Source of the DNA: a virus
Lineage: Duplodnaviria; Heunggongvirae; Uroviricota; Caudoviricetes
DNA length: 28,600 bases
IMG/VR virus record: IMGVR_UViG_2737471849_000006
Direction: 5' to 3' (one strand)
A program made the position numbers and the translations under genes. Shown here piece after piece: positions 1-19,812 of the stretch. The first letter of the stretch is position 1, and every line of letters starts with the position of its first letter. Below the pieces are notes generated by a model, which worked only from the letters and a program-made list of their open reading frames with translations, ran no database searches and was not told the DNA's origin.

Positions 1-219
1 TTACATCCACATAATTTGCTGCCCTGATGGCAACGGGTGCGGCCTTACGGCGTGGACTTCTCCCGGCTTCACGATGTATCGCTGTACCGACTCATAAGTG
101 ATGAACGTGGCGCTGCAATTCACGTTCTGGCACTGATGATAACGCTCTTTTGTCGTGTCAGTGATATAGCGACTTGTACGCGCATGTGCGGCATGCTGGC
201 ATAAAGGACAATGAAACAT
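1..219 (-). CDS. ogr: late-gene transcriptional activator Ogr (zinc-finger)
   Basis: The 72-aa product starting MFHCPLCQHAAHARTSRY matches P2 Ogr as I recall it; the start is the internal Met of the 93-aa track ORF (cat at 217-219). Cys pairs fit a C4 zinc finger. Confidence 0.9.
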   Translation of the reverse strand: MFHCPLCQHAAHARTSRYITDTTKERYHQCQNVNCSATFITYESVQRYIVKPGEVHAVRPHPLPSGQQIMWM

Positions 220-300
220 CGCGAGCACCTCTTCCGGTTTTGTTGATGGTGCCATTTTAGTTAATTTATCCTTACAAAACAAACAGATAAAACAAAAACA

Positions 301-1464
301 TCACTCATCATCTTCTGTTTCGTACTCCACATCAGAAAGCCTGACCTCAAGCTCTAAGGACGTCGTGAAGCCGCTATTATTCAGAAAATGTGTCACCTTA
401 GTGATTGTCCAGTCCTGCTCGTCTATGACGCGCTTAAAGCCAGACACTTTGACCGGTGTTTCCGTGTAAATATCTGCCCGACCGGTAGCCAGGCTGATAG
501 AGAACTCCGCAACGCCCCGTTGCAGTTTATCCCACTTCGCCTGAGCGGCGCGCATGGCCTGCGCTTTCGTGGCATATACCGTGGTCAGGGCAAAAACGTT
601 GTCAGCCTCACCGGCCATGTATTCACCTTCACGCGCTTCCGGTACTTTAGGCGCTTTCTTCTGCCTGACCGGTTTCGCTTTCGGGTGCTCCAGTGCGCGC
701 AGGTGTTTCTCTTTCTTTTTGCGTTTCAGTTTTACCTTCTGCTTTTGCGGCTTCGGGTCTTTAGTGTGTAGCCATTTTGCCGTTACACCGGTGTAGGCTC
801 CACGGTCAGCAATCGCAAAATGATGGCGGTCGCCGTCGCTGCGGGTTATGGTGACCTGCGGGATTTTTTTACCGCTGGCCGTCACTCCCTGCCCCGCTTT
901 GAGAAACAACAGTTTTCCCATTTTTACCGACACCTCACCGCCGTTGCGTTCTGCAAGACGGGTCAGGAATTTCGCATCAGACTCCTGCGACTGGTCGATG
1001 TGTGGAATTTTTATTCCGGCCAGTGACGGAGCGACACTGGCTTCCAGCCTGTTACGGGTGGCTATCGCCTTAACAATCGCACCGAGCGTGGTGTCATGCC
1101 AGGAGCCTTCCCGGCGGGAATTGAGCGTCCCGCGAAAATCTGCACTCCGGGCGCGGATGGTGACTACATCCGGTGCGCCCCGGTGTTCAACCTCATCAAC
1201 GGTAAATTTCCCTTTGCATACCAGGGCAAAACCTTTCCAGCCGATATACACCGTCAGGACAGCGCCACGAACCGGCAGCCCGACCTGCCCGTCGGCATCG
1301 TTCAGTTCAATATCAAGCTGGTCAGCCTCAAAGCCCCGGTTATCCGTCAGGGTCATGCTCATCAGACGGTCGCTGATATTGCCGGTAATATCCCTGCTGT
1401 CGAGCATCAGCATGTAATCCGGCGTCAGCGTACTGCCTGCATCAAATGTCAGCGCATCCAGCAT
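301..1464 (-). CDS. D: tail protein gpD
   Basis: 387 aa, the P2 gpD length, at the distal end of the FI-FII-E-T-U-D operon; stop/start overlap with U at 1464. Confidence 0.88.
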   Translation of the reverse strand: MLDALTFDAGSTLTPDYMLMLDSRDITGNISDRLMSMTLTDNRGFEADQLDIELNDADGQVGLPVRGAVLTVYIGWKGFALVCKGKFTVDEVEHRGAPDVVTIRARSADFRGTLNSRREGSWHDTTLGAIVKAIATRNRLEASVAPSLAGIKIPHIDQSQESDAKFLTRLAERNGGEVSVKMGKLLFLKAGQGVTASGKKIPQVTITRSDGDRHHFAIADRGAYTGVTAKWLHTKDPKPQKQKVKLKRKKKEKHLRALEHPKAKPVRQKKAPKVPEAREGEYMAGEADNVFALTTVYATKAQAMRAAQAKWDKLQRGVAEFSISLATGRADIYTETPVKVSGFKRVIDEQDWTITKVTHFLNNSGFTTSLELEVRLSDVEYETEDDE

Positions 1465-1943
1465 TATCCCGCCCCCGTCATACCTGTGAATCTGGTCGCC
1501 ATACTGCCGGCCTTACCGATGAGCGATTCCGCCTGTTTACCGATATCGCCATAAAGCGCGGCCAGTGATTCATCAACGCGGGTGAGTGACAGCGTAAAAT
1601 CAATTTTCCGGGGTGTGCCGTCTGCAAAGAAAATACTCCCTGTTTCACTCACCCTGCTGATGACATACATGCCGTAAATCATGCCGGTGCCATCCAGCAA
1701 CGGCCACGCCCGCCCCTCCTCTGCCATCAGCCTGAGCGTGGTCATCGTCAGCTTGCCGCCGGTCAGTTCGGGATAAAGCACACCGGCCAGCGTGATGTTT
1801 TCCTCACCCACACCGAGAAACTGAAAGGCATCCCGTTTACCGATACGGGAATTTGACGGCCAGCGATAATCTGATTCACGCTGCATGGTCTGGTGTGGCA
1901 GCGTCTGGCGCATAAAAACAAACATACCTAACGCGAGCATCAT
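1464..1943 (-). CDS. U: tail protein gpU
   Basis: 159 aa, P2 gpU length and position immediately after the tape measure gene. Confidence 0.88.
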   Translation of the reverse strand: MMLALGMFVFMRQTLPHQTMQRESDYRWPSNSRIGKRDAFQFLGVGEENITLAGVLYPELTGGKLTMTTLRLMAEEGRAWPLLDGTGMIYGMYVISRVSETGSIFFADGTPRKIDFTLSLTRVDESLAALYGDIGKQAESLIGKAGSMATRFTGMTGAG

Positions 1944-1957
1944 TTTTCGTCACCTCC

Positions 1958-4405
1958 TTAACCGTCATGCATCATGCTGGCACGGGCGCGCGCACGTTTA
2001 TCCCGCTCGTATTTTTCGAGCGCATCCTGTAACTGGCGGTCAAGCTGTGTCCCCGGCGCAGTCCCCCCCGTCAGGCTGATGTGATATTCGTTTTTACTCT
2101 GGTCTACATAAGAGCGGCCAGCCGGTGCCGTGACCGGCTGATAAGCCTGATAGCCTGCATAAGAGCTGGTCGCCGGAATATAGTCACCGGTACCATACGT
2201 GGCGGTATGAGTTCTGGCGGCGGTCTGGTCAAGTGTGTCTGACTCTTTGTTGATAACACCGAGTTTTTCCAGTACCCAGTCAATACCACTGCGCAGTTTG
2301 TTGAACGCATTAAGCGGCAGCATCAACGCGTCAGCCAGTGCCTGCCCGAACATGACGCCCGTGTCACGGCAACGGTTCAGGGTGTCCTGGGTGGCTTTGA
2401 CCGGGGCAATCAGGTTTTTAAACCACTGCCACGCGGCCTGTAACTTTTCGCCCAGCCAGTCAAAAACCGGTTTAAGTGGCGTGAACAGTTCCCCCACCGG
2501 CGCAAATGCCGCTTTCAGCCCTTCAACCACACCACCAAAGAATGCGCTGACAGGCTCCCAGTATTTACGGATAAGCAACGCACCGGCGACAATGGCAGCC
2601 ACCACGGCCACAACCGGCCAGCTAATAGCCCCGATGGCGGTCATAACAGCACTGCCAACCGTCGTGAAGACTGCCCCCATTGCGCCTGCTGCCGCGATGA
2701 TGGCATTGATGCCGGTGATAACCGGCCAGGCTACGAGGCCAATGGCACCGATGATGCCAGTAAGCGCCAGTGCACCGCCGGCAATGATGCCGATGGTTAA
2801 CGCCAGTGATTTGTTTTTCTGTATCCAGCCGTCGAGTTTTAACACATACTTTGTGGCCGTCTGCGTGAGCTTACGCAGCGCGCCTTCCTGCTGGTCAAAC
2901 AGGTCAGTCCCCACCGCCTCATAAGCGGACTGAAACGCTTTAAAGTCACCGCCTAGGTTGTCCTGCATGATATTTACCAGCTCGGCGGTCTTCCCGTCTG
3001 AGGCTTTAAACGCAGCGGTCAGTTTGTCCAGCTTTCCGGTTGAGGCGGCAGTCATCAGCACGGCAGCGGCTGAGCTGGCCTCCTCCCCGAAAATAGTTTT
3101 CATGTATTCAGCCTGCTGGGCAGTACCGAGCCGGTTTTTCTCAAAACTGGCCTGCATTTCTTTCAGAATGGTAAATACTGGTCGAGTATTCCCTTTACTG
3201 TCTGAGGTTTTCACGCCAAGCTCTTTCAGTGCATCCCATGCTTTTCCCGTCGGTGCCTGCAGGCGGCTTAACACGGCACGGCTTCCCGTCCCCGCCATTG
3301 AACCGGTAATTTTTGCATCATGCAGCGCCCCGACCATTGCGGCGGTTTCTTCAATGCTGACACCAGCATTTTTTGCCACAGGTGCGGCATAGGTCAGCGC
3401 ATCGCTCATGCCATCAAAATCGGCGGCGGTTTTGTTCATCGTCATGGAGAGAACATCCCCGATATGAGCGACCTTATCGTTTGAAAGCTGAAAGGCGGAT
3501 TTCATCCCCATCAGCAGGGCGGCGTTTTCTTCCATCGTGCGACGGTTCGCCAGCGCCATATTCAGCGTGACCGGCGTTGCCGCCTGAATGGCATCAACAT
3601 CCCCACCGGCTTTCGCAATAATAATCTGCGCACCGGCTGCATCATCCGCCGAGGCGGCAGTATTGTCGCCGAGCTGGCGCGCCTGTTTGCGGAGTGCGGT
3701 CATTTCGGCGGAGTCTTTTGCCACACCGAGCACAGCCTGCAATTCTGAGTTTTTCTGCGCAAACTCATAACCGGGCATCAGCAACTTAACTCCGGCCATC
3801 GTTCCCGCAGCAGCAATCCCCACACCGGCAGCGCCCACTGAGGCCATATTTCCGGCCAGTTCCTTTCCGGCCTGATAACGCTGTTTTACTGCGTTAAGTT
3901 TTGCCTGTTGCGCACTGACACGCGCCAGCGCGTCGCGCTGACGGTTAAGTTGTGCGGTGGTTTCACTGATACGGTTTTTCAGTCCCTGCTCATCATGTGC
4001 AAGATTGCGGGTATTAATTCCCACAGCGGCCAGTTCCCGCTGCTGGCGTTTAACGGAATCCGTCAGGCGGTTATATTTCGCCTGTAAGTCCTCCGCCGCA
4101 CGCTTTGCGGATTCCAGCACTTTCGCCTGAGCACGGGTCGGACGTTCGGTGTTTTTAAACTGTGTGGCAAGGGCTTCGGCTTCCTGCCGTGCCTTTTCAA
4201 GTGCATGACCAGTCACGGCAAGCTGTGCGCTGGTCTTGCGGAATCCCTCAATACGGGATGCGTGACCGTTCAGCTCGCGCAGTGATTTTTGTGTTTCCCG
4301 GATATCCCCCGACAGCGACCTGCTCGCTGTGCGGATGGATTTAAACGGGCGGGATGCCTGGTCAACAGCCCTGAGCAATACCTGTAATTTTACATTGTTA
4401 CTCAT
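1958..4405 (-). CDS. T: tail tape measure protein gpT
   Basis: 815 aa, the P2 gpT length. Ala/Gln-rich coiled-coil N-terminal half and Gly/Ala-rich hydrophobic central segments are typical of tape measure proteins. Confidence 0.9.
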   Translation of the reverse strand: MSNNVKLQVLLRAVDQASRPFKSIRTASRSLSGDIRETQKSLRELNGHASRIEGFRKTSAQLAVTGHALEKARQEAEALATQFKNTERPTRAQAKVLESAKRAAEDLQAKYNRLTDSVKRQQRELAAVGINTRNLAHDEQGLKNRISETTAQLNRQRDALARVSAQQAKLNAVKQRYQAGKELAGNMASVGAAGVGIAAAGTMAGVKLLMPGYEFAQKNSELQAVLGVAKDSAEMTALRKQARQLGDNTAASADDAAGAQIIIAKAGGDVDAIQAATPVTLNMALANRRTMEENAALLMGMKSAFQLSNDKVAHIGDVLSMTMNKTAADFDGMSDALTYAAPVAKNAGVSIEETAAMVGALHDAKITGSMAGTGSRAVLSRLQAPTGKAWDALKELGVKTSDSKGNTRPVFTILKEMQASFEKNRLGTAQQAEYMKTIFGEEASSAAAVLMTAASTGKLDKLTAAFKASDGKTAELVNIMQDNLGGDFKAFQSAYEAVGTDLFDQQEGALRKLTQTATKYVLKLDGWIQKNKSLALTIGIIAGGALALTGIIGAIGLVAWPVITGINAIIAAAGAMGAVFTTVGSAVMTAIGAISWPVVAVVAAIVAGALLIRKYWEPVSAFFGGVVEGLKAAFAPVGELFTPLKPVFDWLGEKLQAAWQWFKNLIAPVKATQDTLNRCRDTGVMFGQALADALMLPLNAFNKLRSGIDWVLEKLGVINKESDTLDQTAARTHTATYGTGDYIPATSSYAGYQAYQPVTAPAGRSYVDQSKNEYHISLTGGTAPGTQLDRQLQDALEKYERDKRARARASMMHDG

Positions 4406-4825
4406 TCGTGTTTCCGCTTCGCCGGAGCGCCTTTTCGCGCCATGTGATGAGTTCGGTCAGGCTCATGGGATACAGTTCTGATGGCGGCCAGTGAAATATC
4501 ACTGCCACATCCGCCATCAGGTCATCGACCGACAGATTTTTCGGGAACGTCACTGCACCGAGTTCGGCGACAAAAAACCGACCACCTTACCGGCCAGCGC
4601 CACAAGGTCAGGCAGTTCCAGCGCGGCGACTTCCTGCTCGGTCAGCATCGGTGCCGTCATGCGCGGCAGCACTTTAATCAGTGCATCGACTTCGGAGTTC
4701 GCGACCGCAGCCAGACTGACACCGCGCAGCGTCCCGGCATTGGGTTTCATCAGCGTGACCTGTTCAATAACCTGCTCACCACGTTTGACCGGATTGTCCA
4801 GGGTAATGACATTTTCTTTGTTCAT
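4398..4825 (-). CDS. tail assembly chaperone E+E' made by programmed -1 frameshift
   Basis: Slippery run TTTTTTG on the minus strand (plus coordinates 4571-4577) lies in the last codons of E. I traced the -1 frame by hand: it stays open for about 57 codons to a TAA at 4398-4400, overlapping the T start at 4405. The predicted total is about 142 aa, as in P2. Confidence 0.7.
4550..4825 (-). CDS. E: tail assembly chaperone gpE
   Basis: 91 aa, matching the P2 gpE length, located between FII and T. Confidence 0.88.
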   Translation of the reverse strand: MNKENVITLDNPVKRGEQVIEQVTLMKPNAGTLRGVSLAAVANSEVDALIKVLPRMTAPMLTEQEVAALELPDLVALAGKVVGFLSPNSVQ

Positions 4826-4880
4826 GGTTTTCTCACTTCTGAATCGGGGTTACCGGTCAGCCTGGCTGACCGGATGAAAA

Positions 4881-5399
4881 TCACAGGCCGATATTGCGGC
4901 GGTGTTGCTCCAGCCGGTCGACGCCGTTCACCTTCTCAATCATGTTGATGGTGTCAATTTCGACCAGCTCCTTACCGTCCATCGTCAGCCGGAAATAGGT
5001 GCAGACCACGGAGATTTTCGACTCGGTGTCTTCTCCCTGTTTGCCCTCGCCGGTGTCGATTTCTTTCTGACGTCCACGCATGACCACCTCGACGGCCACC
5101 GTTTCGCCGGTATCGTCGCGCTGGTAAGAGCCTGCAAAACGAATCGGTACGGCATCCACACCGGTTGCGGCGTAAAGCTCCCAGATAACCGAATCCGGGA
5201 AGCCACCGAGCGACCACTCCATTGACAGCGCATCGTCATCAAGGCCGAGGTCTACCGGTGCGCTGCCGTTCATTCCCGCACCGCGATAGTTTTCGAGCTT
5301 ACGGGTCAGTTTTGGTAGCGTGACGGACTTCGCGACGCCCTGATAGCTGTAGCCGTTCAGAAAGACGTTCATTAACTTGAGTTTGCGCGGCATTGCCAT
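4881..5399 (-). CDS. FII: tail tube protein gpFII
   Basis: 172 aa, P2 FII length and position downstream of the sheath gene. Confidence 0.9.
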   Translation of the reverse strand: MAMPRKLKLMNVFLNGYSYQGVAKSVTLPKLTRKLENYRGAGMNGSAPVDLGLDDDALSMEWSLGGFPDSVIWELYAATGVDAVPIRFAGSYQRDDTGETVAVEVVMRGRQKEIDTGEGKQGEDTESKISVVCTYFRLTMDGKELVEIDTINMIEKVNGVDRLEQHRRNIGL

Positions 5400-5411
5400 C
5401 GGTCAGGCTCC

Positions 5412-6602
5412 TTAATTGCTGTTAACCGAAGTGACCAGATTTGCCAGGTATTTATCGGTAATACGCTGGCGCAGGGTCAGGTTTTCAAGAGGAGGCACCG
5501 GGGTATAGTCATAGTCGATATACAGTTTTCCGGCCTTGAGGGTTTCCGCATCGTTGGATTCTTCGCTGAACCAGCAGGTCGCATCCACGATATAGCCGTT
5601 TGTTTTCAGCTCACGGAATTTGGCATTGATGCCGTCAACGATGTCGCGAATCAGCGTTGCGGTGATGGGCTTGTCCACCGCCCACATGTGTGCCTCAGCC
5701 ATCGTATCGGCCAGCACCTGCGCGGTGCGGGTGTAGTTTTCAAAGAGGAAAAGCGGGTCATCAGAGCAGGTACGGTTACCCCAGAATCGGAAACCGTCAC
5801 GGCGAATCAGCGTAGTGACGCCTGACTCGTTAAGCAGGTCAGCATCGGTGCCGGACTCCTGCAAATCCCAGAATACAGATGCGCTGATGCCGGTAACACC
5901 GTTCACCCCGACATTGGACAGCGTTTTATGCCAGCCCTGCTCCTGGTCGATTTTAGCGCGCAGCCCCAGCGCACGGGCGGTGGCATACGCGGTGGCGGTG
6001 GTACTGGTGACCGTATCCCATGCGAGGAAATCCGGCCAGATGACCATCAGCTCACGCTGGCTGAAATTCTGACGATAGGCTTTCACCTCGGAAATGGTTT
6101 TACAGCCCCATGCGCTGATATACCCGAAAGCACGCAGCTTCTGACAGACTGATGCCAGTGCAACAGCCACCTCTTTGGTATCCAGTCCCGGCACGCCGAG
6201 AATACGCGGTTTAACACCGGTTACCGACTCCGCCGCCAGCAGGGCTTTTAGTCCGGTGTACTGACCGTTTTCATCGGTGGTGCCGATGATATTGGAAACG
6301 GTCTGCGCGAGTTTCGTTTCCTCGTCATCACCGGTGCCGTCTTCCACGCGCACGACAACGGTGACCGGTTTTGACTGGTCAGCGATGGCCTGCAACGATG
6401 CCGCCAGCGTGCCTTTTTTACCGGCCTTTGAAATTGCGCTCTGCACATTGGTAATCAGCACAGGTTTATTGAGGGGGAAGGTTTCCGCATCTGCATCGCT
6501 GGCCGTGCAGACCATGCCGACAATGGCCGTGGATACGGTGGAAATGACGCGGGTGCCCTCGTTAATCTCCAGCACCTGCACGCCGTGATGATAGTCACTC
6601 AT
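5412..6602 (-). CDS. FI: contractile tail sheath protein gpFI
   Basis: 396 aa, P2 FI length; first gene of the FI-FII-E-T-U-D late operon. Confidence 0.9.
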   Translation of the reverse strand: MSDYHHGVQVLEINEGTRVISTVSTAIVGMVCTASDADAETFPLNKPVLITNVQSAISKAGKKGTLAASLQAIADQSKPVTVVVRVEDGTGDDEETKLAQTVSNIIGTTDENGQYTGLKALLAAESVTGVKPRILGVPGLDTKEVAVALASVCQKLRAFGYISAWGCKTISEVKAYRQNFSQRELMVIWPDFLAWDTVTSTTATAYATARALGLRAKIDQEQGWHKTLSNVGVNGVTGISASVFWDLQESGTDADLLNESGVTTLIRRDGFRFWGNRTCSDDPLFLFENYTRTAQVLADTMAEAHMWAVDKPITATLIRDIVDGINAKFRELKTNGYIVDATCWFSEESNDAETLKAGKLYIDYDYTPVPPLENLTLRQRITDKYLANLVTSVNSN

Positions 6603-6992
6603 CCGTTTAACTCCGTGGTTAATGGGTGAGTGGTATTTTCAGTTGCGCCGGAGATGTCAGGCTATTTGTCCCGGTTGGCTAATCGACAGCACAACCACCG
6701 GTAAAGAAAAGGCGGGCAATTCGCTCACCTGCCCTGATTTGTACTCACTCATTTTCCGACTGACAGTTTACATAGCCCAAAAGCTATCAAATCTGACAGT
6801 TTCCTTTGAGCGAGAAGCGGAAGTTGTTCATTTATACAAGTCTGAAAGATGACTACCGAAGCTACAGCGATTCGGTTCATTCATCCACAAATAGTTCCTT
6901 TACATTTCATATGTTGATATCCACAATATGCGACAGAGCAGCGCTATGTTTTTATAACCATATGTTTTTCAATTGCTTTAGTTGAGGTAATA

Positions 6993-8579
6993 ATGATACC
7001 AATCAAAGATCTAACTCTTGGCTATGCTGATGCTGAAAATTATAAGAGAAGGGAGAATAAAGAATTACTTAACAAAGTGTTCATACGTGATAATCACCTA
7101 TCTAGATTATGTGAACCAAATATATCGTTTCTTGTAGGAGAGAAAGGTACTGGTAAAACCGCATACTCTATCTATCTCTCAAATAACAATATTAACAATA
7201 CGCTAGCTACAACTAAATATATAAGAGAGACAGAATATCAAAAATTTATCACTCTTAAATCTGAAAAGCATTTAAATTTGTCTGACTTCTCTGGCATATG
7301 GAAAGTTATTCTATATTTATTAATATCAAAACAAGTATTAGATAAAGAAGGGAAAATTTCAAAGTTACTAAATTATTCAAAATTCTCATCACTTAATGAT
7401 GCAATAGATGAGTATTATCTTAAGGCATTTTCACCAGAAATAATTCAAGCCCTCAGTTTTGTTCAAGAGTCAAAAGTTGCAGCCGAACTACTTCATAAGC
7501 ATGCAACCTTAAAAGGTGAAGAAAGAGAGTCTTTATCTTTTTCTGAGAGCAGATTTCAGATAAATTTATTTTATATACAAAAAAAATTTGAAGAGGCCTT
7601 TAGCCAAATACGTTTATCTCAAAATCATATTTTATTTATCGATGGTATTGATATCCGCCCTTCCTCAATTCCATACGATGATTATCTAGAATGTATAAAA
7701 GGATTAGCTCACGCAGTCTGGGAGATTAACAACGATTTCTTCCCAAGTATAAAGGGAGGAAAAGGGAGAATGAAGGCCGTTCTCTTGATCAGGCCAGATA
7801 TATTTGAATCCATAGGATTACAAAATCAAAACGCAAAAATCAGAGATAATTCAGTATTCTTGGACTGGCGGACAGAATATGTTAACCACCGTAGCTCTCA
7901 ATTATTTGAGGTATTAGATCATCTGCTTAGGACTCAGCAAGACATGGCCCTTAAAAAGGGACAGGCATGGGACCATTATTTCCCTTGGGATTCACCCAAC
8001 GTCCATGATAATTATAATCACCCCACATCATTTATTAATTTCCTTCGCTGGTCATATTATCGCCCAAGAGATATATTACGGATGCTCGAAATTATCAAAT
8101 CACACGCCAGCGGTGATGATGGGAAAAATCAATTTAGTCTAGATGACTTTGAAAGTCCTAGCATGCAAAGAGATTACTCTAACTATTTACTTGGAGAAAT
8201 AAAAGATCATTTATCATTTTATTATGGAAGTGAACATTATGAGATTTTTTTAAAGTTCTTTGAATTCCTCTCTGGAAAAGATACTTTTGATTACGCTGAA
8301 TACCTCTTAGCATATAAACAACTTGAAACTCATATTAGTTCCATTTCCACAACAAAACCAAAATTCATGACAACTGCAAATGACTTCCTTCAGTTTCTTT
8401 TTGGTCTCAATGTAATATGCTATATAGAAACAACCGAAGATAATAATAGGTTTATACGTTGGTGTTTTAGAGAAAGAAGTTACGCAAATATCTCACCAAA
8501 AATAAAAACAGGAATGAAATATCAAATATTTTATGGCTTGGCAAAAGCCTTAAACGTCGGAAAGGCTTTAAAAAAATAA
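6993..8579 (+). CDS. P-loop NTPase of unassigned family; cargo gene in the Z/fun slot between FI and G, candidate anti-phage or exclusion protein
   Basis: 528-aa ORF with GAGG ribosome-binding site 5 nt before the ATG. Walker A GEKGTGKT near residue 50 and a Walker B-like ILFIDGID near residue 210. Strongly AT-rich codon usage compared with flanking tail genes, and transcribed opposite to them. Confidence 0.7.
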   Translation: MIPIKDLTLGYADAENYKRRENKELLNKVFIRDNHLSRLCEPNISFLVGEKGTGKTAYSIYLSNNNINNTLATTKYIRETEYQKFITLKSEKHLNLSDFSGIWKVILYLLISKQVLDKEGKISKLLNYSKFSSLNDAIDEYYLKAFSPEIIQALSFVQESKVAAELLHKHATLKGEERESLSFSESRFQINLFYIQKKFEEAFSQIRLSQNHILFIDGIDIRPSSIPYDDYLECIKGLAHAVWEINNDFFPSIKGGKGRMKAVLLIRPDIFESIGLQNQNAKIRDNSVFLDWRTEYVNHRSSQLFEVLDHLLRTQQDMALKKGQAWDHYFPWDSPNVHDNYNHPTSFINFLRWSYYRPRDILRMLEIIKSHASGDDGKNQFSLDDFESPSMQRDYSNYLLGEIKDHLSFYYGSEHYEIFLKFFEFLSGKDTFDYAEYLLAYKQLETHISSISTTKPKFMTTANDFLQFLFGLNVICYIETTEDNNRFIRWCFRERSYANISPKIKTGMKYQIFYGLAKALNVGKALKK

Positions 8580-8979
8580 AAAACAAAAATGGCGAGTGGA
8601 AAACACTTGCCATTCACCTCATAGTAATAACTAATAGTAGATAATTTTAACGGGACGCAGACCGAATTGTGTAATCTGAACATTTACCAAATATTTAAAA
8701 TATTATCTGAACTGAGTGATGCCAATCATAGCGCCAATACCTCTTCGCAAGTGACACTTGATGCAGAAAGCTATTTTTAAAACACGCGATAATAATCATC
8801 TCCTATGCCCTATCATCTTATGATTCTGTACAGGAAGACGCACGTTAGCTATGCAATCAAAACACACTGATATGACCATTGTTCTTGTTTATAAGGTCCG
8901 CTTTTGGCACAGAGTGGACTTCAGATTAGGCTTTACTCTGTGCCATAGATATGTAAGTTCACAACAGAGGTCATACAAC

Positions 8980-9507
8980 TTATTGCGGCATTTCCGGCCA
9001 TTCAGGATTTGCAGGATCCACACGGCTGACCAGAACGCTGTAACGTTCCCATGACTCCAGTCGTGCACGTTCCTCATCCGTCGCCATATTCAGCCTGACA
9101 GCGCGTTCCAGTGGCTGAATAACGTTTTCCGCTTCGGAAAGTAACGCGGCCTTTTGTGATTCTGCCTGTTGTTGCTGTTCATCTGCCGTATAAATCCGTT
9201 TAACCACAGCACCATCCTTAAACATCCATTTACCTGAGTCGTCAGCACGTCGGTTGGAGGTAATATCAGGAACCTCAACAACGCTAAAACCTTCAGGATT
9301 AAGCGTTGAAGCATCTCTGGTGATAGCGACAATAATATTATTTTCATCGTAAACAATCTTTATTGTGTCTGGCTGAAAGTTCTTCACTTCCTCATACCAG
9401 TTTTTTCCGTCTTCGGACCATAACCAGATAACATCAAAATTCTTTGTTAGCTGATATTGCTCTTTTGTTTTTGGATTACCTGACTTAATGTTCTTTAAAT
9501 GCTGCAT
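8980..9507 (-). CDS. G: tail fibre assembly chaperone gpG
   Basis: 175 aa, P2 gpG length, immediately downstream of tail fibre gene H. Confidence 0.88.
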
Positions 9508-9510
9508 AAC

Positions 9511-11520
9511 TTACACCTGCGCAACGTTATACCATGTGCCATTGATGTATTTTTGTATCGGCCTGAAGATGGCTTCATCATCGCCATCTACTTCACCAAT
9601 GATTCTTAATCCGGTAATCGTGTGTCCGGCTTTTTCATAACGACCACCTCGCGCCATCAATTGAACAACTCGCGTACCCAGGCGAACATCTTTCACATAG
9701 CGGGAATCAAAATTTCCCCAGTTGCTGGGTTGCATCTGACCGTTAACAGCAAATATTACCGAGTTATCTGTATTTCGCTGGCTATAGAAATGCCATCCGG
9801 CCTCATCGCCTAACTCTGCAACCACTGGACGGGTGGAAGCACCCCATAAATTAAAGGTAATATTCTTCGTGGATGTATTAGAGCTGGATAGCGAGAACTT
9901 TTTACTATCACCTGCCTGAATATTTTTAAAAGCAATAGCCACTCCATTCTGAAAACGGAATACACGCTGACTGTTAGCATAAACATCAAGAATACCGTCT
10001 CCATTCTGTTTAAATCCGGTATCATTATCACCAAGAACAATAGAGCTACCACCTAGTGCATTCGTCGTACCAACTCCAAAACAGCCATTAATGACGGCAT
10101 TAACAAGAATATTTAGTGCATCCCATTTCAACGTCATCAGGTCTTTTGTTGTGGTACTCTGGCGGCTTCTCCATTTGAAATATTCATTGCCGTTATCCCC
10201 CGTTTCAAACCACATGTATGAATCAGTGTCACCATCGGCATCATTTTTAAATCCAATCTTCGCCCAGTCAGTATTTCGAATCCAGGCAAGGATTGAGTCG
10301 TTTTCAAAAGTAAGTCCACCGGACAAGGTATCGCCATTTTTTTGCACGGCGTTCCCGGCTCGGTTTACCGTTTCCTGTAAACCGAGATATTCGATAACGG
10401 CGGCAACGGTCGATTTAGCCAGAATATCCCGCCCGACTTTTGTCAGGGTCGCCAGGCTGGCAACATCATTCCCCGTAAAATACGGAAACCTGTCTGCCGC
10501 AGTAGCAAGCCCCGCCAGCGCCGTCAGGGTAGCATCTTTCGGTTGCTTACCCGCAAGTGCATTAGTCATGGTGGTAGCAAAATTCGGGTCATTGCCCAGC
10601 GCCGCCGCCAGCTCGTTCAGCGTATTCAGTGCGTCAGGCGACGAGTCTACAAGGGCGGCAATCGCGGCCATAACGAAAGCCGTGTTTGCGATCTGAGTAT
10701 TATTCGTTCCCTGTCGCGCAGTTGGCGTCGTTGGCGTTCCGGTCAGTGCAGGGCTGTTTAATGGCGCTTTTTTGTTCGTTTCATCCATTACCGTCTTAAC
10801 GGCTTTTGGTGTTGCGGCGAGCGTTTCAGACGTGCTGTTGGTGGCGCTACTAAGCTGGACAAGGCCTTTTCGCGCTGTGGTGGCGTCCTGTGCGGTATAT
10901 TTCCCGTTAGCCAGGTCATACGCGGCCTTTACCGCTTTCGGCGTTGCGGCCAGTGTTTCAGACGTGCTGTTGGTCGCACTGCTTAACTGAGTAAAACCTT
11001 TTGCTGTCAGCGAGGCGTCCGGGTGACGTCGTGACTGTTCGTGCTCTGCAATTTTGTCATCAACGTAATCCTGCGTCGCCATCACCGTTGTGGTGTCAAT
11101 GGTCAGCTCCACTGAGGCCACACTGCTGACGATGATGACCATGCGACAGGTCTGCGAACGTCCTGAGCCTTCGGCAAGGGCTGGCTTATAGCTTTCGGCC
11201 ATGTTCGCCACGGCAATTAACGTTCCCGCATCATCGTACAGGCCAAGCTCACGCATCCAGAAACCGCCCACCTCCGGCGGAATAACCAGCTCTGCGATAA
11301 TATAATTACTGTTTCGTTTGTCCTGGCTGATTTTGTTCAGCGCATGTCGCCAGACTTCATGGATAAGCCCGGTCTGTCCGGCATCCGGGACAGGCAATTT
11401 ACCACCGCCATCCCCGACGGCCATCGTGGTAATGTTGACCTTCCGCCCTCCCGGTGCGGTTGCCGCTGCCAGCTTTGCTGCACCGGCAGTGGTGATAACG
11501 GTTTTGAATTTTGTGCTCAT
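9511..11520 (-). CDS. H: tail fibre protein gpH
   Basis: 669 aa, P2 gpH length. Contains a duplicated LSSATNSTSETLAATPKAVK motif and a C-terminal receptor-binding region. Confidence 0.9.
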   Translation of the reverse strand: MSTKFKTVITTAGAAKLAAATAPGGRKVNITTMAVGDGGGKLPVPDAGQTGLIHEVWRHALNKISQDKRNSNYIIAELVIPPEVGGFWMRELGLYDDAGTLIAVANMAESYKPALAEGSGRSQTCRMVIIVSSVASVELTIDTTTVMATQDYVDDKIAEHEQSRRHPDASLTAKGFTQLSSATNSTSETLAATPKAVKAAYDLANGKYTAQDATTARKGLVQLSSATNSTSETLAATPKAVKTVMDETNKKAPLNSPALTGTPTTPTARQGTNNTQIANTAFVMAAIAALVDSSPDALNTLNELAAALGNDPNFATTMTNALAGKQPKDATLTALAGLATAADRFPYFTGNDVASLATLTKVGRDILAKSTVAAVIEYLGLQETVNRAGNAVQKNGDTLSGGLTFENDSILAWIRNTDWAKIGFKNDADGDTDSYMWFETGDNGNEYFKWRSRQSTTTKDLMTLKWDALNILVNAVINGCFGVGTTNALGGSSIVLGDNDTGFKQNGDGILDVYANSQRVFRFQNGVAIAFKNIQAGDSKKFSLSSSNTSTKNITFNLWGASTRPVVAELGDEAGWHFYSQRNTDNSVIFAVNGQMQPSNWGNFDSRYVKDVRLGTRVVQLMARGGRYEKAGHTITGLRIIGEVDGDDEAIFRPIQKYINGTWYNVAQV
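10795..10990. repeat. imperfect direct repeat of ~60 bp inside tail fibre gene H
   Basis: The segment TTTCAGACGTGCTGTTGGT with flanks occurs twice (around 10820-10860 and 10950-10990) and encodes the duplicated LSSATNSTSETLAATPKAVK motif. Confidence 0.7.
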
Positions 11521-11530
11521 TATTCCTCAC

Positions 11531-12061
11531 TTATCCGGGGTAAACCGTAATTACATCGCCGTCGTAAGCCACACCACCGGCGAACAGGTAGCCGGGAATG
11601 TCCCGGGTAATGTTCAGGCCAATAAGGTGACGGCTTGCAGGTTTGGCATCAGCAATCAGCCGTTCCATTTCCTGATACATTGCCTCTGTGATACCGCTTT
11701 CCAGTACACCAATATCAAGCCGGAAGGTGCCGGGCGGGTCACTGTTTTCCCACCACTCCGTCACGTTGATGAGATAGCCGAGCGGCTCCACCACACGCCG
11801 GATTGCACCTATCGTGCCCTTATGACAGTGGATGAAATAGGCATCGCGGATAACGGCGCGTTTTGTCGCTTCCGGCCACTTTTCATCCCACCTGTCGACC
11901 GAAAACGCCCACGCCAGCCACGGCAGCAGATTTGCCGGACAGGTGTCCGGGTTCCACAGTTCACGAATACTGACCGGCGTTTTTTCAATTTCCGCACAGG
12001 CTTTTGCGGCGGCGACCTCAAGCGGTGATGAGCCGGTCGGCAGCAGTCGCGAATCACTCAT
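11531..12061 (-). CDS. I: baseplate assembly protein gpI
   Basis: 176 aa, P2 gpI length and order. Confidence 0.88.
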   Translation of the reverse strand: MSDSRLLPTGSSPLEVAAAKACAEIEKTPVSIRELWNPDTCPANLLPWLAWAFSVDRWDEKWPEATKRAVIRDAYFIHCHKGTIGAIRRVVEPLGYLINVTEWWENSDPPGTFRLDIGVLESGITEAMYQEMERLIADAKPASRHLIGLNITRDIPGYLFAGGVAYDGDVITVYPG

Positions 12062-12962
12062 CCGAGCCTCCGGTCACGACGCGGTATTCGGTACAGAAAG
12101 ACGCCTGCGTACTGTTGAGCACGATGTCGGCCAGTGGTGCAGCCAGTTCGACACGCTGCACACCTTCCACATGCAAAGCGGCATAAATGGCAGACAGACG
12201 GATGTCGCGCCCCAGCCGGTGCTGTGCCGTGATATACGCTTCCAGCTTTTTCACAGCGGCAGCGCGGATGGGTTCGCTTTCGGGACCAGGGTAAAGGTAA
12301 AGCGTGGCGTTTATCTGGTATTCAACGATGGCGGCAGACTGCACGGTCACGCGGTCGGCCACCGGCCTGACGTCCTCGCCATTAAGGGCGTTACGCACCA
12401 CAGCCAGCAGGTCTTCGGATGCGACGCCGTTATTTTCACGTGACAGCACAGAGATGGTGACACAGGCAGGAGACGGACTGGTGACAGAAATATCCGCGAC
12501 ACGCCCGTCAGCACTGCGACCATGATACTGATAGGCTCCCACTGACCCGGCGACGCTTAAGCCCTCAAAAGCCTGCTGAATACGCAGACGATAATCGGTG
12601 TCAGATTCCATCACTGCCGGTGTCGGCGGCATGGTCGAATCATCTGCCGGGGTGATAGTCAGGCGCGTGGTGTTGTAATTGGCACCAATCACATCAAGGT
12701 CATTACCGGCGGCACAGGCCAGCATCACCGCCCGTGCGGCCTCATTCACACGCTGACGCCAGATAAGCTCACGATAAGCATTTTCTTCCAGCAGTTTGAC
12801 GAGAGGCTCAGATTCCAGTGTCAGGGTACGGGCGACCGCCTCCTGCTGATCTTCCGGGTAAAGGGAAATCAGTGTCGCCTTGCGTTCAGCGAGAATGCTT
12901 TCAAAGTCCAGCTCCTCGACCACATCCGGTGCGGGTAGCTGGTTCAGGTCGATAATCGGCAT
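12054..12962 (-). CDS. J: baseplate wedge protein gpJ
   Basis: 302 aa, P2 gpJ length; overlaps the I start by 8 nt. Confidence 0.88.
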   Translation of the reverse strand: MPIIDLNQLPAPDVVEELDFESILAERKATLISLYPEDQQEAVARTLTLESEPLVKLLEENAYRELIWRQRVNEAARAVMLACAAGNDLDVIGANYNTTRLTITPADDSTMPPTPAVMESDTDYRLRIQQAFEGLSVAGSVGAYQYHGRSADGRVADISVTSPSPACVTISVLSRENNGVASEDLLAVVRNALNGEDVRPVADRVTVQSAAIVEYQINATLYLYPGPESEPIRAAAVKKLEAYITAQHRLGRDIRLSAIYAALHVEGVQRVELAAPLADIVLNSTQASFCTEYRVVTGGSDE

Positions 12963-12966
12963 GGTT

Positions 12967-13314
12967 TCAACTCACAGGGATGGTTAATGAAAGTGGCTGG
13001 CCGGTGTCGTTGTGCTGGCCGGTTAACGTGACCGTCATTCGCCCGTCAAAACTGCGCGCCGTGGTGACGGATGACAGGGTGACGCGGGGTTCCCATTTCA
13101 GCACTGCCATGTAACAGGCGACTTTAATCTGCAACTCAAGCGCCGGGGTCTGCGGCTGGTCAATCATTGACGCCAGCAACGAGCCGTAATCACGACGCAT
13201 CACCCGTGAGCCGACCGGTGTGCGCAGGATATCGCCGATACTCTGGCTGATATGCTCAAGGTCAGTGACAGTCAGGCCATCACTGCGATTCATTCCGAGA
13301 TAACGCGCTGTCAT
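12967..13314 (-). CDS. W: baseplate protein gpW (T4 gp25-like)
   Basis: 115 aa, P2 gpW length and order. Confidence 0.88.
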   Translation of the reverse strand: MTARYLGMNRSDGLTVTDLEHISQSIGDILRTPVGSRVMRRDYGSLLASMIDQPQTPALELQIKVACYMAVLKWEPRVTLSSVTTARSFDGRMTVTLTGQHNDTGQPLSLTIPVS

Positions 13315-13946
13315 AAAGGACTCCCGGTTGTGCCGCCGCTGTCGCCGGGGTGTTTATGGGTATGCAGTACCTTACCGTTTGATGAGAGTTCACCGCCGGT
13401 GTGTTCAATGTTGCCGCGCATCGTCCCGCCTTTCTGCACTTCCAGCGTGCCGGTAATCAGCCTGTTGGTGCAGACCACCTCCGGGGTGTCCAGGGTGACG
13501 CGGGTTGATGCTTTCACCATGACCACCGGCACCGTGGCAGTAACAGAATCAGAAGCCGTCACGCTGGCCGTTTTAATTCCGCTTACCGTGAGTGCACTGG
13601 TTTCGGGTTCATATTCAATCACCGCCCCGTCAGGGAAACGGATATGCAGGGCATCCGCCGACACAGACGGCGAGGGGTTATCGCCGGAATAAATCCCCGG
13701 CAGAACGAACGCCGTGTCGAGTTCACCACCCACGGCCAGAATCAGCACCTGTTCCCCCACGGAAGGTGCCCACCATGTGCGCGAACGTCCTGCGCGATGG
13801 GTCAGCCACTGAAGCCAGTCGGTGCACATGCCGCCGGTCTGCACGCGGCAGCGACCGGCGTTAAGGTCGGTTTCGACGATAATGCCAGTGCGAATCATGT
13901 TGCGCAGTGCGCGCGCGAGTTCCTGAATATTTGCGAGAGTGTTCAT
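13311..13946 (-). CDS. V: baseplate spike/assembly protein gpV
   Basis: 211 aa from the internal start MNTLANIQELARALRNM (cat at 13944-13946), matching P2 gpV as I recall it. The track ORF runs 6 codons further upstream. Confidence 0.85.
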   Translation of the reverse strand: MNTLANIQELARALRNMIRTGIIVETDLNAGRCRVQTGGMCTDWLQWLTHRAGRSRTWWAPSVGEQVLILAVGGELDTAFVLPGIYSGDNPSPSVSADALHIRFPDGAVIEYEPETSALTVSGIKTASVTASDSVTATVPVVMVKASTRVTLDTPEVVCTNRLITGTLEVQKGGTMRGNIEHTGGELSSNGKVLHTHKHPGDSGGTTGSPL

Positions 13947-14029
13947 GCATGTGAGATTGCACAATATATAAAAGTTATGCTATCTGGATTCATTTGTAGA
14001 ACTACCAGACAACATTCAAGGAGAGCGTA

Positions 14030-14815
14030 ATGGTCAGCTATAATGTGACTAATGTGTGGGGGCTAATCGTTTTTTTCCTTTGTAGCTTTGCAGTATTAGC
14101 ATTTTTTAGCTTTGGTAAAAGTAACCTTATGAGGCTTATTGCACATTATTTCAATTTTGGATATTCAGACAAAAAATTAAAAAGACTTGACCGCGAGTGG
14201 CGCGACATTCAACTATTTAAAATAATTAACGGAATCAATGTATCAGGCATTGAAAATGTGAGAATGATACAGCAGGGACTGATTGATGGAAAACTAAAAA
14301 CATCGTATTTTTTCCTTACTCGTATCTGGGGTGACATAACAAAACCACCACACATAATTAAAACAATAATTGTAATTCTGGCCAGTATTTTTTACATTCT
14401 CCTCGCATGTTACATACACAACGAACAATCCGTTATAGTAAGGGATGCCACAGGCATACCATATAAAAACATGATGTACTATGTTTATAGTGACAAAGTT
14501 CTTTTATCCTTCAAAAATAAAGCAGTTGAATTTAATAAAACTTATAGCCTTGCCGATTGCAAGAGACTGCAAAACGTATTTATAAAAGACACACTTCCTG
14601 AGATCGCCTGCAATAAGCTCTTACAGCTAAACGAGGAGGACTCCGAATGGTTAAGCCAGGAGATTAAAGATAATAACAGACACAAAAAAGCATTATTAAT
14701 ACTATCCCTCGTCTATTTCACTTCAGGTCTGGTTATATTCCTGTCATATACAAAATTCTTTTACGCCAATAAGAAGGTTTTAGAATACAAAGCATCAAAT
14801 AAAAATCACTCATAA
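14030..14815 (+). CDS. integral membrane protein with three predicted transmembrane helices; cargo gene in the orf30 slot between V and S, possible exclusion/abortive-infection factor
   Basis: 261-aa ORF with AAGGAG ribosome-binding site 7 nt before the ATG. Hydrophobic segments LIVFFLCSFAVLAFFSF, IIKTIIVILASIFYILLACYI and ALLILSLVYFTSGLVIFLSY. AT-rich, on the strand opposite the tail genes, followed by a hairpin at 14822-14856. Confidence 0.65.
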   Translation: MVSYNVTNVWGLIVFFLCSFAVLAFFSFGKSNLMRLIAHYFNFGYSDKKLKRLDREWRDIQLFKIINGINVSGIENVRMIQQGLIDGKLKTSYFFLTRIWGDITKPPHIIKTIIVILASIFYILLACYIHNEQSVIVRDATGIPYKNMMYYVYSDKVLLSFKNKAVEFNKTYSLADCKRLQNVFIKDTLPEIACNKLLQLNEEDSEWLSQEIKDNNRHKKALLILSLVYFTSGLVIFLSYTKFFYANKKVLEYKASNKNHS

Positions 14816-14821
14816 ACCTCT

Positions 14822-14856
14822 AAACATTGAGCGACCAGCATGGCCGCTCAATGTTT
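14822..14856 (+). terminator. stem-loop between convergent genes (membrane-protein gene and S)
   Basis: Arms AAACATTGAGCG (14822-14833) and CGCTCAATGTTT (14845-14856) form a perfect 12-bp inverted repeat, followed by AATT. The U-tract is weak. Confidence 0.5.
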
Positions 14857-14886
14857 AATTGCGCATCAGCCTCTGCCTGGATAAAA

Positions 14887-15339
14887 CTAACGCTCAAGGT
14901 GAGCCAGGATAATCTCTTCAATCATCTGCACATCCTCACCGGTAAAGCCGAGCAGGGGACGCGCCGGATAATCAATTTTCTTACCGTCTTTCCGGTTTTC
15001 TTCCGACAGACCAAACTGATGCACACTGGCGATTTTCGGCGACTTCCCGCCGTAAAATTCCATTGATGCCTGCTCCGGGCTGGCACGGATATGCAAAAAA
15101 CGACTAGTAATAAGTTTCGCAAACATTTTTCGCTTAACGCGACCGGTCTTTTTTCTGACGCTCTGCTGTTGGCGTGGCGCGTAGGGTGTGCCGTCCGGGG
15201 CTTTCTGTGCCATCACCCGACGCTGCTGACTCTGCCGCAGACGTTTCGCCAGTTCGGCACTCAGTCGCCGACGCCCTGACGGTGACAGCGATTCAATCAG
15301 TCCGGTCAGCCGGTCTTCAAAACGCTTAAACTCATTCAT
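14887..15339 (-). CDS. S: tail completion protein gpS
   Basis: 150 aa, P2 gpS length and order. Confidence 0.88.
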   Translation of the reverse strand: MNEFKRFEDRLTGLIESLSPSGRRRLSAELAKRLRQSQQRRVMAQKAPDGTPYAPRQQQSVRKKTGRVKRKMFAKLITSRFLHIRASPEQASMEFYGGKSPKIASVHQFGLSEENRKDGKKIDYPARPLLGFTGEDVQMIEEIILAHLER

Positions 15340-15799
15340 CCCACTTGCTCACCAGTTCGCCATTGATATAAAGCTCCATCGGGCGGGTGACCGGCTCCGG
15401 CGGCGTGGGTTCCGGGATATTCTTCACATGCAGCGCGCCGTCCACCTCACTGACCAGCGTGCGCTCGGTCAGCATCAGGCTGATGCTGATATCAAAGCTG
15501 CTGTCATTGTTGATGTCTGCATAAAACGTGAAGCCCTTTTTCTGGCCTTCGTCAGTGGTCATGATGTCGGGCTGATTTTCCCGCAGCCACGCCAGCACCG
15601 GCACGATGAGCAGGTCAAAATCACCGGTAAAGTCGGTCACAATGACATTGAGCGTGTAACGCTTTTCAAATGACAGCGACGTCGCCAGTGTGGAGGCAAT
15701 ACTCCCGTTATCCACGAATATCCGCAGCATCTCGGGACTGGTTTTCAGCACCGTGACGGCATCAGTCAGCGCCCTGCGCAGGCTGTCGGGTTTGAGCAT
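15332..15799 (-). CDS. R: tail completion protein gpR
   Basis: 155 aa, P2 gpR length and order. Confidence 0.88.
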   Translation of the reverse strand: MLKPDSLRRALTDAVTVLKTSPEMLRIFVDNGSIASTLATSLSFEKRYTLNVIVTDFTGDFDLLIVPVLAWLRENQPDIMTTDEGQKKGFTFYADINNDSSFDISISLMLTERTLVSEVDGALHVKNIPEPTPPEPVTRPMELYINGELVSKWDE

Positions 15800-16052
15800 C
15801 GTTTTCGTCCTGACAGTGTTTAATCATTTTTACCTGGCTGGCACAGCGTGCCAGCGCGTTCTCAAGCTGCCGGATATCGGCACTTAAATCACCGTTCGTC
15901 TCCGGGTCACTGCCCGGCATCGGGCAAAGGCTCACTTTCGGGCAGGCGTTGTGGACAATCACTGGCGTCAGTGCAGGCCGGGCGCTGGTGCAACCGGCGC
16001 ACAGCATCAGGTAGGTCAGCGCCGTACCAGCGGCGAAAATCTTCGTTTTCAT
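15762..16052 (-). CDS. lysC: Rz1-like outer-membrane lipoprotein spanin LysC
   Basis: 96 aa with signal peptide and lipobox (LMLCAGC). Lies in an alternate frame overlapping the 3' part of lysB and the 5' end of R, the classic embedded Rz1 arrangement. Confidence 0.75.
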   Translation of the reverse strand: MKTKIFAAGTALTYLMLCAGCTSARPALTPVIVHNACPKVSLCPMPGSDPETNGDLSADIRQLENALARCASQVKMIKHCQDENDAQTRQPAQGAD

Positions 16053-16332
16053 TCAGTAACCTCGTGATGGTTTTCTCGCGCTGTGCTTCACGTTTCGCGG
16101 CGTTCTCCAGTTCCTGACGCAGTGCCACCTGCGCCAGCTCGTTTTTATCTGCCCTGGTGAGCGCAACATGAAGCTGATTTTTCAGCATGGTGATGGTCGT
16201 CTGCTGACCGCTGGCGACGTTGTTCGCCCTGTCCAGCGAGGCGCGCAGGCTGGCATTTTTGTGTTTCACCAGAAACAGACCGGCCACCGCCAGCGATAAC
16301 AACACGACCAGCACAATCATCAGCCTTGACAT
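15907..16332 (-). CDS. lysB: Rz-like inner-membrane spanin LysB
   Basis: 141 aa with an N-terminal transmembrane anchor, a coiled-coil periplasmic domain and a Pro-rich C-terminus. Confidence 0.85.
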   Translation of the reverse strand: MSRLMIVLVVLLSLAVAGLFLVKHKNASLRASLDRANNVASGQQTTITMLKNQLHVALTRADKNELAQVALRQELENAAKREAQREKTITRLLNENEDFRRWYGADLPDAVRRLHQRPACTDASDCPQRLPESEPLPDAGQ

Positions 16333-16745
16333 GGTTCCCGCCCCTCAAAACGCTGACGGCAGGCCGTACGTATCAGTCGGAAGAACACCGATGCCACGAG
16401 ATAAATCAGCGCGGTAAAAATCCACCCGGCAGCGACCAGCGAGATAAACGTCGCCACCATCACCACCAGAGCCGCTGCCCGTCTGCGCCACGGCACCGGC
16501 TGCAAAAACAGCGACGTGACAATCTTCACGGCCAGCGATTCCGGCGGCAGCTCCCGCCCGTAGCGTTCCAGCACATACTCAGTGGCATACACGCCGACAC
16601 CAACGGCAACCACACAGATAACCGTCGCCAGAATCGCCCAGGCAGCGACAAAATTGACGGCCACGCTCTGCGGGTAAATCAGGGACAGTGCCAGCATCAG
16701 CGCCAGCGACACATTCAGCATCAGTGAAAGGGATAATTTCTTCAT
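16320..16745 (-). CDS. lysA: lysis-timing membrane protein LysA
   Basis: 141 aa with several hydrophobic helices, P2 LysA length and position. Confidence 0.82.
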   Translation of the reverse strand: MKKLSLSLMLNVSLALMLALSLIYPQSVAVNFVAAWAILATVICVVAVGVGVYATEYVLERYGRELPPESLAVKIVTSLFLQPVPWRRRAAALVVMVATFISLVAAGWIFTALIYLVASVFFRLIRTACRQRFEGREPCQG

Positions 16746-16759
16746 GGTGTTTACTCCGT

Positions 16760-17257: not shown

Positions 17258-17538
17258 TACTGTTTCCCCCTGCCCTTAAAGCGGCGCTGAATGGCAATCT
17301 CAATCACCTGATAACCGGCGATACCCAGCATGGAGCCGATGCCGCACACCGCTGGCAGTGACAGGTCAGGAAACTGCACCAGAACAACACCGGCAACCAT
17401 CGAGACAAAACCACCGAGCAACATGCGCCCGATAAACAGACGCGGGGTGATAGGTTCACCACCGGCAAGCACCTTGCCGACAACAATCAGCACCCCAATC
17501 ATGAAAAGCGACAGGACGCTTTTTTCTTCTGCTGTCAT
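17257..17538 (-). CDS. Y: holin gpY
   Basis: 93 aa with hydrophobic helices and a charged C-terminus (RRFKGRGKQ); P2 gpY length. Confidence 0.88.
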   Translation of the reverse strand: MTAEEKSVLSLFMIGVLIVVGKVLAGGEPITPRLFIGRMLLGGFVSMVAGVVLVQFPDLSLPAVCGIGSMLGIAGYQVIEIAIQRRFKGRGKQ

Positions 17539-17541
17539 GCG

Positions 17542-19487: not shown

Positions 19488-19491
19488 ACAT

Positions 19492-19800: not shown

Positions 19801-19812
19801 TCATATTAAACA

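Follow-up and report, generated by a model that had tools for sequence, protein, structure and literature searches.

The antisense ATPase gene between G and FI of a P2-derived prophage is bacteriophage P2 fun(Z), with a predicted AAA+ and winged-helix fold

The window analyzed here is the whole 28,600-nucleotide stretch of IMG/VR virus record IMGVR_UViG_2737471849_000006, and the gene under study is the 528-codon open reading frame (ORF) at positions 6993-8579 on the plus strand. This ORF is bacteriophage P2's own fun(Z) gene, carried by a P2-derived prophage at the canonical site between G and FI, an identification of which we are practically certain. Window positions 6600-9000 match positions 15254-17654 of the P2 genome (NC_001895/AF063097) at 99.9% DNA identity over 2,401 nucleotides, both intergenic regions included, and the encoded protein is identical with P2 NP_046777.1 (P2p22) at 527 of 528 residues without gaps. 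The sole substitution is at residue 519, where the window encodes the alanine of the family consensus (A519) and the reference P2 encodes serine (S519). The two genes also share the position between G and FI, the orientation, the flanking terminator and the pF promoter region, although the surrounding prophage differs elsewhere from the reference P2. The original prediction, which was made from the raw sequence, had read the ORF as an anti-phage P-loop NTPase and as a possible new swap-in. The former part holds; the latter does not, and near-identity to P2 fun(Z) is the very outcome that the prediction had named as the mark of a known rather than a new locus. The slot is indeed a known hotspot for cargo exchange: a survey of 5,426 complete E. 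coli genomes gave matches to its flanks in 1,512 but fun(Z) in only 13 of the 5,426, and different ORFs occupy the slot in other phage records. This pattern would fit a P2-like prophage in whose Z slot a new, uncharacterized defense gene had taken the place of fun(Z), but that reading is refuted by the DNA and protein identities given above and retains practically no probability. The locus is already known as the type gene of the P2 Z/fun hotspot.

Fun(Z) is a known non-essential single-gene determinant of lysogenic conversion and abortive infection. The NC_001895 record notes that the cloned gene stops the growth of T5, that it is nonessential and that it acts in lysogenic conversion, and the sensitization of the host to 5-fluorodeoxyuridine (FUdR) by fun(Z) is likewise taken from the annotation of this record. 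According to the passages of the BASEL study that deal with Fun/Z, its expression inhibits all Markadamsvirinae (T5-like phages), all Tevenvirinae, all Vequintavirinae and one Felixounavirus (PMC8594841), and the corresponding passages of the 2025 BASEL extension add Kuravirus and a Gamaleyavirus to the sensitive phages (PMC11990801). As far as these passages go, the targets of Fun/Z in systematic tests are phages larger than ~60 kb (PMC8594841, PMC11990801). Vassallo et al. 2022 listed fun as a "previously identified defence gene" of the second P2 hotspot (PMC9519451), Z/fun is a classical hotspot in the iLund4u preprint and in a 2026 Nucleic Acids Research paper, and further literature on the Fun/Z phenotype can be found in PMC9519451 and PMC8987985. 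These phenotypes (the block of T5 and of large phages, and FUdR sensitivity) are those of the near-identical P2 gene carrying S519.

In the ORF listing, fun(Z) is the sole long ORF of its slot and starts with ATG. It lies antisense between FI (5412-6602, sheath) and G (8980-9507, tail-fiber assembly), both on the minus strand. The guanine-plus-cytosine (GC) content of the ORF is 0.328 versus 0.557 for FI, and in 500-nucleotide windows it stays at 0.30-0.37 from ~6800 to 8900 versus ~0.56 outside. A Shine-Dalgarno sequence, GAGGT (6984-6988, plus strand), can be read directly in the sequence 4 nucleotides 5′ of the ATG. The prediction of one large gene between the tail operons, on the opposite strand, far poorer in GC than its neighbors and equipped with its own ribosome-binding site agrees with all of these observations, as does its placement of the gene in the variable FI/G (Z/fun) slot. 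Upstream, a candidate sigma-70 promoter (6899-6927, plus strand; TTTACA-17-CACAAT) matches the consensus at 9 of 12 positions; the consensus scan returned 14 sites against a chance expectation of 9.6 ± 2.9, so this candidate is weak evidence for a promoter. Downstream, the hairpin that P2 annotation gives as the rho-independent terminator of the V operon (V-W-J-I-H-G; P2 15639-15666) maps to 8588-8615 on the minus strand, starting 9 nucleotides beyond the fun(Z) stop codon and with its T-run on the minus strand. A simple terminator scan missed this hairpin because its stem holds a G-T pair.

The gene is contained in an AT-rich cargo cassette of 2.08 kb (6814-8895, plus strand; GC 0.335), which is delimited on both sides by conserved boundary repeats. 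The FI-side repeat (6733-6813) shares 92.6% identity over 81 nucleotides with positions 1752-1832 of AJ512683, where it is annotated as the "right inverted repeat" of P2-EC58, and the drop in GC starts just past it. The G-side repeat (8896-9007) shares 92% identity over 113 nucleotides with positions 3-115 of the same record, is the counterpart of the P2-EC58 "left inverted repeat", and reaches into the 3′ end of G. Both repeats are imperfect, and only the mapped P2-EC58 annotation revealed them; a generic repeat finder returned no long perfect inverted repeats flanking fun(Z). The cassette holds no credible ORF for a second gene, the ORFs of at least 50 codons besides fun(Z) being out-of-frame antisense only, and an Rfam search of 6550-9050 gave no match. 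Just beyond the slot, at 9000-10500, G and the 3′ (receptor-binding) half of H have an intermediate GC of 0.43-0.46 versus ~0.56 for the other tail genes, which fits the known mosaicism of tail-fiber tips beside the hotspot (iLund4u preprint).

The protein carries the two nucleotide-binding motifs of a P-loop ATPase. The Walker A motif GEKGTGKT occupies residues 49-56 (7137-7160, plus strand) and is invariant in the family; the prediction had already named this motif. The Walker B motif ILFIDGID occupies residues 213-220 (7629-7652, plus strand), with LFID at 214-217, invariant D217 and D220, and no glutamate following the aspartate. It was also correctly recognized from the raw sequence, and residues 211-217 form a beta-strand, as a Walker B motif should, in the structural model described below; the distance between the two motifs, start to start, is 164 residues rather than the predicted 150 or so. 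The positions that show no variation even when relatives with as little as 25% identity are compared are K51, G52, G54, K55, T56, W103, D217 and D220, as well as L238, N246, R267, N278, W292, Y329, F347, P358 and R359. Fun(Z) matches the NCBIfam model NF047389, "P-loop ATPase, Sll1717 family", with 210.6 bits against a cut-off of 75 (E = 4.5e-62), and the alignment is full length, from residues 9-520 to profile positions 1-454 of 454. RefSeq gives the E. coli copies the same family name, and PHROG 13260 (phrog_13260) is matched at E = 2.5e-212. Both NF047389 and PHROG 13260 are without functional annotation, and membership therefore gives no mechanism.

Curated domain collections are less informative about Fun(Z). 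A Pfam scan of the protein returned nothing significant, only AAA and Sigma54_activ_2 at E ~0.07. Among the relatives, all Pfam matches are below threshold: ORC-CDC6-like in 9 of 27, nSTAND3 in 8 of 27, and AAA_16 and NPHP3_N in 5 of 27 each, with best E-values of 6e-7 for ORC-CDC6-like and 4e-5 for nSTAND3, below the gathering scores seen. Because the matches to Pfam models of this class all fall below the gathering scores seen, we describe Fun(Z) by its AAA+ (ORC/Cdc6/TnsC/STAND-like) fold class without assigning it to a named Pfam family. The comparison with defense databases that the original prediction had called for gave no convincing full-length match in PADLOC-DB v2, only PDC-M28C at E = 0.0033 over residues 17-74, that is, at the level of the P-loop region; the best PADLOC match among the relatives reaches 4.8e-6, in 4 of 27.

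A full-length AlphaFold2 (AF2) model of Fun(Z), with a predicted local distance difference test score (pLDDT) of 75.6 and a predicted template modeling score (pTM) of 0.75, places both motifs in an AAA+ core. The modeled core comprises beta1 and Walker A at residues 46-56, beta2 at 70-76, the Walker B strand at 211-217, beta4 at 260-266 and beta5 at 282-284. Fun(Z) thus has, as predicted by the model, both the motifs of the class (a GxxxxGK[ST] Walker A and an hhhhD Walker B on the core beta-sheet) and the AAA+ core with a helical lid. Between the second core strand and helix and the Walker B strand lies a conserved, mostly helical insert of ~110 residues (~96-204; 7278-7604, plus strand). Its residues 145-183 are modeled with low confidence, yet they hold some of the invariant positions of the insert, which are Y142, A145, F146, P148, E149, I150, A153, F156, A164, K169, Q189, N191, Y194, Q196 and F199. 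The region after Walker B had been taken for a 300-residue C-terminal region without recognizable motifs. In the model, residues ~220-295 are the remainder of the AAA+ core, and only residues 296-528 (7878-8576, plus strand) form a separate C-terminal part, which would fold as a lid and a winged helix and which holds the invariant YYRPRD at 355-360 (P358 and R359 being invariant family-wide). A structure search with the C-terminal model returned matches to lid and winged-helix domains only. From the order of secondary-structure elements, R267 (LLIRPD, at the end of beta4) probably occupies the sensor-1 position, as in STAND NTPases, and R359 (at the start of the lid helix) probably the sensor-2 position. 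Taken together, the computed model portrays Fun(Z) as an AAA+ P-loop ATPase with a DxxD Walker B, a helical insert, a lid and a C-terminal winged helix. Our confidence in the identity and the anatomy of Fun(Z) jointly is high.

Structure comparison matches the fold to AAA+ proteins of the ORC/Cdc6/TnsC/STAND type. The highest scores were obtained with TnsC (11.1), Cdc6 (10.6), SSO1545 (10.3), Orc4 (10.1), PABY2304 (10.0), BrxC (9.9) and MuB (9.3), followed by Avs3 (8.1), Avs5 and RdrA (8.0 each), MalT (7.9) and CED-4 (7.6). PDB sequence and profile searches found no related entry, and the BFVD library of viral folds gave no match at E ≤ 0.001. Fun(Z) departs from its structural neighbors in several ways. 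ORC/Cdc6, TnsC, MuB, SSO1545 and PABY2304 (the last two from the "archaeal ATPase" group) share only 9-15% identity with it, and no Pfam model reaches its gathering score with Fun(Z). Compared with these initiator-type and archaeal ATPases, the helical insert of ~110 residues is far larger, Walker B reads DGID instead of DE, and an arginine instead of a polar residue is found at sensor 1. Among the defense proteins, BrxC (BREX) and RdrA (RADAR) act with partners, BrxB/PglZ and RdrB respectively, whereas Fun(Z) is a stand-alone protein of 528 residues; Avs3 and Avs5 carry fused effector and sensor domains, and Fun(Z) has neither. No effector domain (nuclease, protease, NADase, transmembrane or other) could be recognized in the protein.

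The long spacing between the two Walker motifs had prompted the suggestion of a KAP-like insert. Fun(Z) does share such a long spacer with KAP NTPases (PF07693), and a KAP-family NTPase would be anchored in the membrane by a segment that separates its two Walker motifs, and would act there. The family evidence does not agree with this suggestion, as KAP_NTPase is not matched by Fun(Z) at E ≤ 1 or by any of 26 relatives at E ≤ 0.01. Fun(Z) has no predicted transmembrane segment either: Kyte-Doolittle hydropathy averaged over 19 residues peaks at 1.24, short of the usual threshold of 1.6, and the insert is modeled as soluble helices. The best fold matches are, moreover, of the ORC/Cdc6/TnsC and STAND type. 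We therefore consider a KAP-type protein very improbable.

The family to which Fun(Z) belongs is widespread. An exhaustive HMMER search retrieved 688 representatives (clusters at 50% identity) at E ≤ 1e-3, of which 163 remain at E ≤ 1e-30, and almost all of them are 520-550 residues long. Close homologs (63-91% identical) occur in Salmonella, Proteus, Pseudomonas, Shewanella, Methylobacter, Chromohalobacter and Thermodesulfobacteriota, the proteins of the E. coli phage and of Thermodesulfobacteriota still being 63% identical. Fun(Z) itself is rare, P2 being the only one of 50,697 phage records that encodes it. In Proteus (L005-L007, positions 7001-10000) and in Pseudomonas (L008, positions 5386-9840), the homolog is found directly beside a tyrosine integrase at the edge of a prophage, and these prophages are of the lambdoid type (with an S24 repressor and Cro-like genes), not P2-like. 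Since homologs adjoin the integrase in prophages other than P2, funZ is a moron of several phage lineages. Elsewhere, the homolog is a solitary insertion amid housekeeping genes. We found no conserved neighbor or partner gene across the Pseudomonas, Shewanella, Proteus and Thermodesulfobacteriota loci; the upstream ORFs of 127 and 160 codons in Pseudomonas and Shewanella are unrelated. DNA homology between hosts ends at the ORF boundaries (L002, L003, L008 and L009, from Pseudomonas, Shewanella and Thermodesulfobacteriota), and the homologs have a GC of 0.37-0.385 within loci of 0.56-0.64. These results suggest that the gene alone has spread recently and widely by horizontal transfer, or else that selection keeps it AT-rich. 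Three family representatives (P0123, P0125 and P0202) are fused with a further domain: two of the fused proteins have a C-terminal cold-shock domain (CSD, an OB-fold; E = 1.2e-5 and 6.5e-5), and the third has an N-terminal Ser/Thr kinase (E = 3.3e-35).

How might such a protein abort infection? We tentatively propose, as the likeliest of several readings but with low confidence, that Fun(Z) is an ATP-driven, nucleic-acid-associated switch or oligomer that combines sensor and effector in one protein. Fun(Z) would be triggered by a cue that arises both in infection by large virulent phages and in thymidylate starvation under FUdR; damaged, nicked or degraded DNA, or a disturbance of the nucleotide pool, are plausible cues. 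The cue would convert Fun(Z) to an ATP-bound oligomer, which could assemble on nucleic acid through its initiator-like AAA+ surface and its winged helix, by analogy with ORC/Cdc6, TnsC and MuB. The oligomer might then stall replication or transcription, and the infection would abort. The two independent relatives with a C-terminal cold-shock domain count in favor of this proposal by providing a link to nucleic acids. The nearly uniform length of the 688 family representatives, the failure to find a conserved neighbor and the end of DNA homology at the ORF boundaries indicate a self-contained protein and likewise count in its favor, as do the fold and the invariant catalytic residues.

Several points weigh against this proposal. 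The cold-shock matches lie just under the Pfam gathering score (25.5 and 23.2 versus 27), and the relative fused with a Ser/Thr kinase points to signaling through a separate effector. The structural models are of moderate confidence, with insert residues 145-183 poorly modeled. T7, too, degrades host DNA. The passages on Fun/Z of the two BASEL papers, however, do not list T7-like phages with the sensitive groups, so that host DNA damage cannot be the whole trigger; the same passages state that the molecular basis of Fun/Z is unknown, still in 2025 (PMC8594841, PMC11990801). Our searches of the literature on Fun(Z)/Sll1717 found no mechanistic paper.

As the main rival of this proposal, and one only slightly less probable, we consider a STAND-like sensor that would recognize one specific protein common to large virulent phages through the helical insert or the C-terminal region. 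Such a sensor would oligomerize and kill or arrest the cell by runaway ATP hydrolysis or by recruitment of a host factor, without binding nucleic acids. Several observations count against it. STAND NTPases have a C-terminal repeat sensor (TPR, WD40 or LRR) and usually an N-terminal effector, whereas the 528 residues of Fun(Z) end after the winged helix and include neither. The best structural matches are DNA-loading AAA+ proteins of the initiator type, not STANDs, and the FUdR hypersensitivity of uninfected lysogens would be left unexplained. This latter phenotype, which is documented in the P2 annotation, would be explained if Fun(Z) were a P-loop enzyme of nucleotide or nucleoside metabolism (e.g., a kinase) that upsets the deoxynucleoside triphosphate pools, and so would the failure of phages that depend on remodeling these pools; one relative indeed has a marginal Zeta_toxin match (E = 0.003). 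The predicted fold is that of an AAA+ protein (ASCE type, with the Walker B aspartate, a sensor-type arginine, a lid and a winged helix) and not of the kinase-GTPase class, and Fun(Z) itself matches no kinase family, which makes an enzyme of this kind improbable. The KAP-NTPase and nucleotide-kinase readings were thus rejected on fold and family evidence.

The rest of the window belongs to the same P2-derived element, in reverse orientation and collinear with P2. Positions 1-17608 correspond to P2 24254-6646 at 99.2% identity, and positions 17608-19675 to P2 2066-1, so that P2 2067-6645 (4.58 kb) is missing at the junction at 17608. This deletion removes the complete genes for the scaffold (O), the capsid (N) and the small terminase (M), as well as L; the terminase gene P loses its 5′ part and X most of its length. 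An element with such a deletion is expected to be incapable of forming heads. The junction is not bridged in any of the 5,426 complete E. coli genomes, the best matches all beginning at ~17608. The junction represents either a rare defective prophage or an artifact of assembly or construction.

Cargo genes are not confined to the Z/fun slot. The old/tin hotspot between the portal gene Q and the replication gene A (19705-22732) does not hold P2 old/tin; it holds an AT-rich cargo (GC 0.30-0.35) of two minus-strand ORFs, 20816-22483 and 19813-20814, a cargo that further P2-like prophages of E. coli share at 98.8% identity. One product is an ABC-type ATPase of 555 residues (AAA_15/AAA_21) that matches the PADLOC models NsnB (1.2e-50), HEC-03B (3e-42), PDC-M55A (6e-41) and AriA (5e-28); the other, of 333 residues, has no Pfam or PADLOC match. 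A third AT-rich island (14030-14815, plus strand; GC ~0.35), antisense between S and V, is P2 orf30, which encodes a protein of 261 residues annotated as "nonessential". Its product has no Pfam or PADLOC match, and orf30 is another moron resembling those of lysogenic conversion. At the right end, positions 26737-28600 have no P2 match by megablast, and an ORF of 331 codons (27605-28600, plus strand) reaches the end of the window. This suggests an immunity/integrase module other than the C/int of the reference P2.

That a real defense gene was flagged from raw sequence makes this locus a useful positive control, not a discovery. The fold-level description of Fun(Z) is a modest and purely computational addition, of which we found no counterpart in the literature searched. 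It portrays an initiator/STAND-like AAA+ protein with a conserved helical insert, a winged helix, no effector domain and no partner gene, and thereby offers concrete mutants and assays. Few classical abortive-infection systems of E. coli act on as broad a range of phages as Fun/Z, and the value that remains in studying it is mechanistic. It is conceivable, with a probability that we put rather low, that the family of Fun(Z), which is widespread and comprises at least 688 clusters (50% identity), consists of effector-less single-protein defense ATPases in which an ORC/Cdc6/TnsC-like AAA+ module with its winged helix is itself the weapon, loading onto DNA or RNA upon a cue common to large virulent phages and thymidylate starvation. 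If true, this would be a mode of abortive infection so far undescribed for any characterized defense system, and it would explain a phenotype that is 60 years old, the FUdR sensitivity of P2 lysogens.

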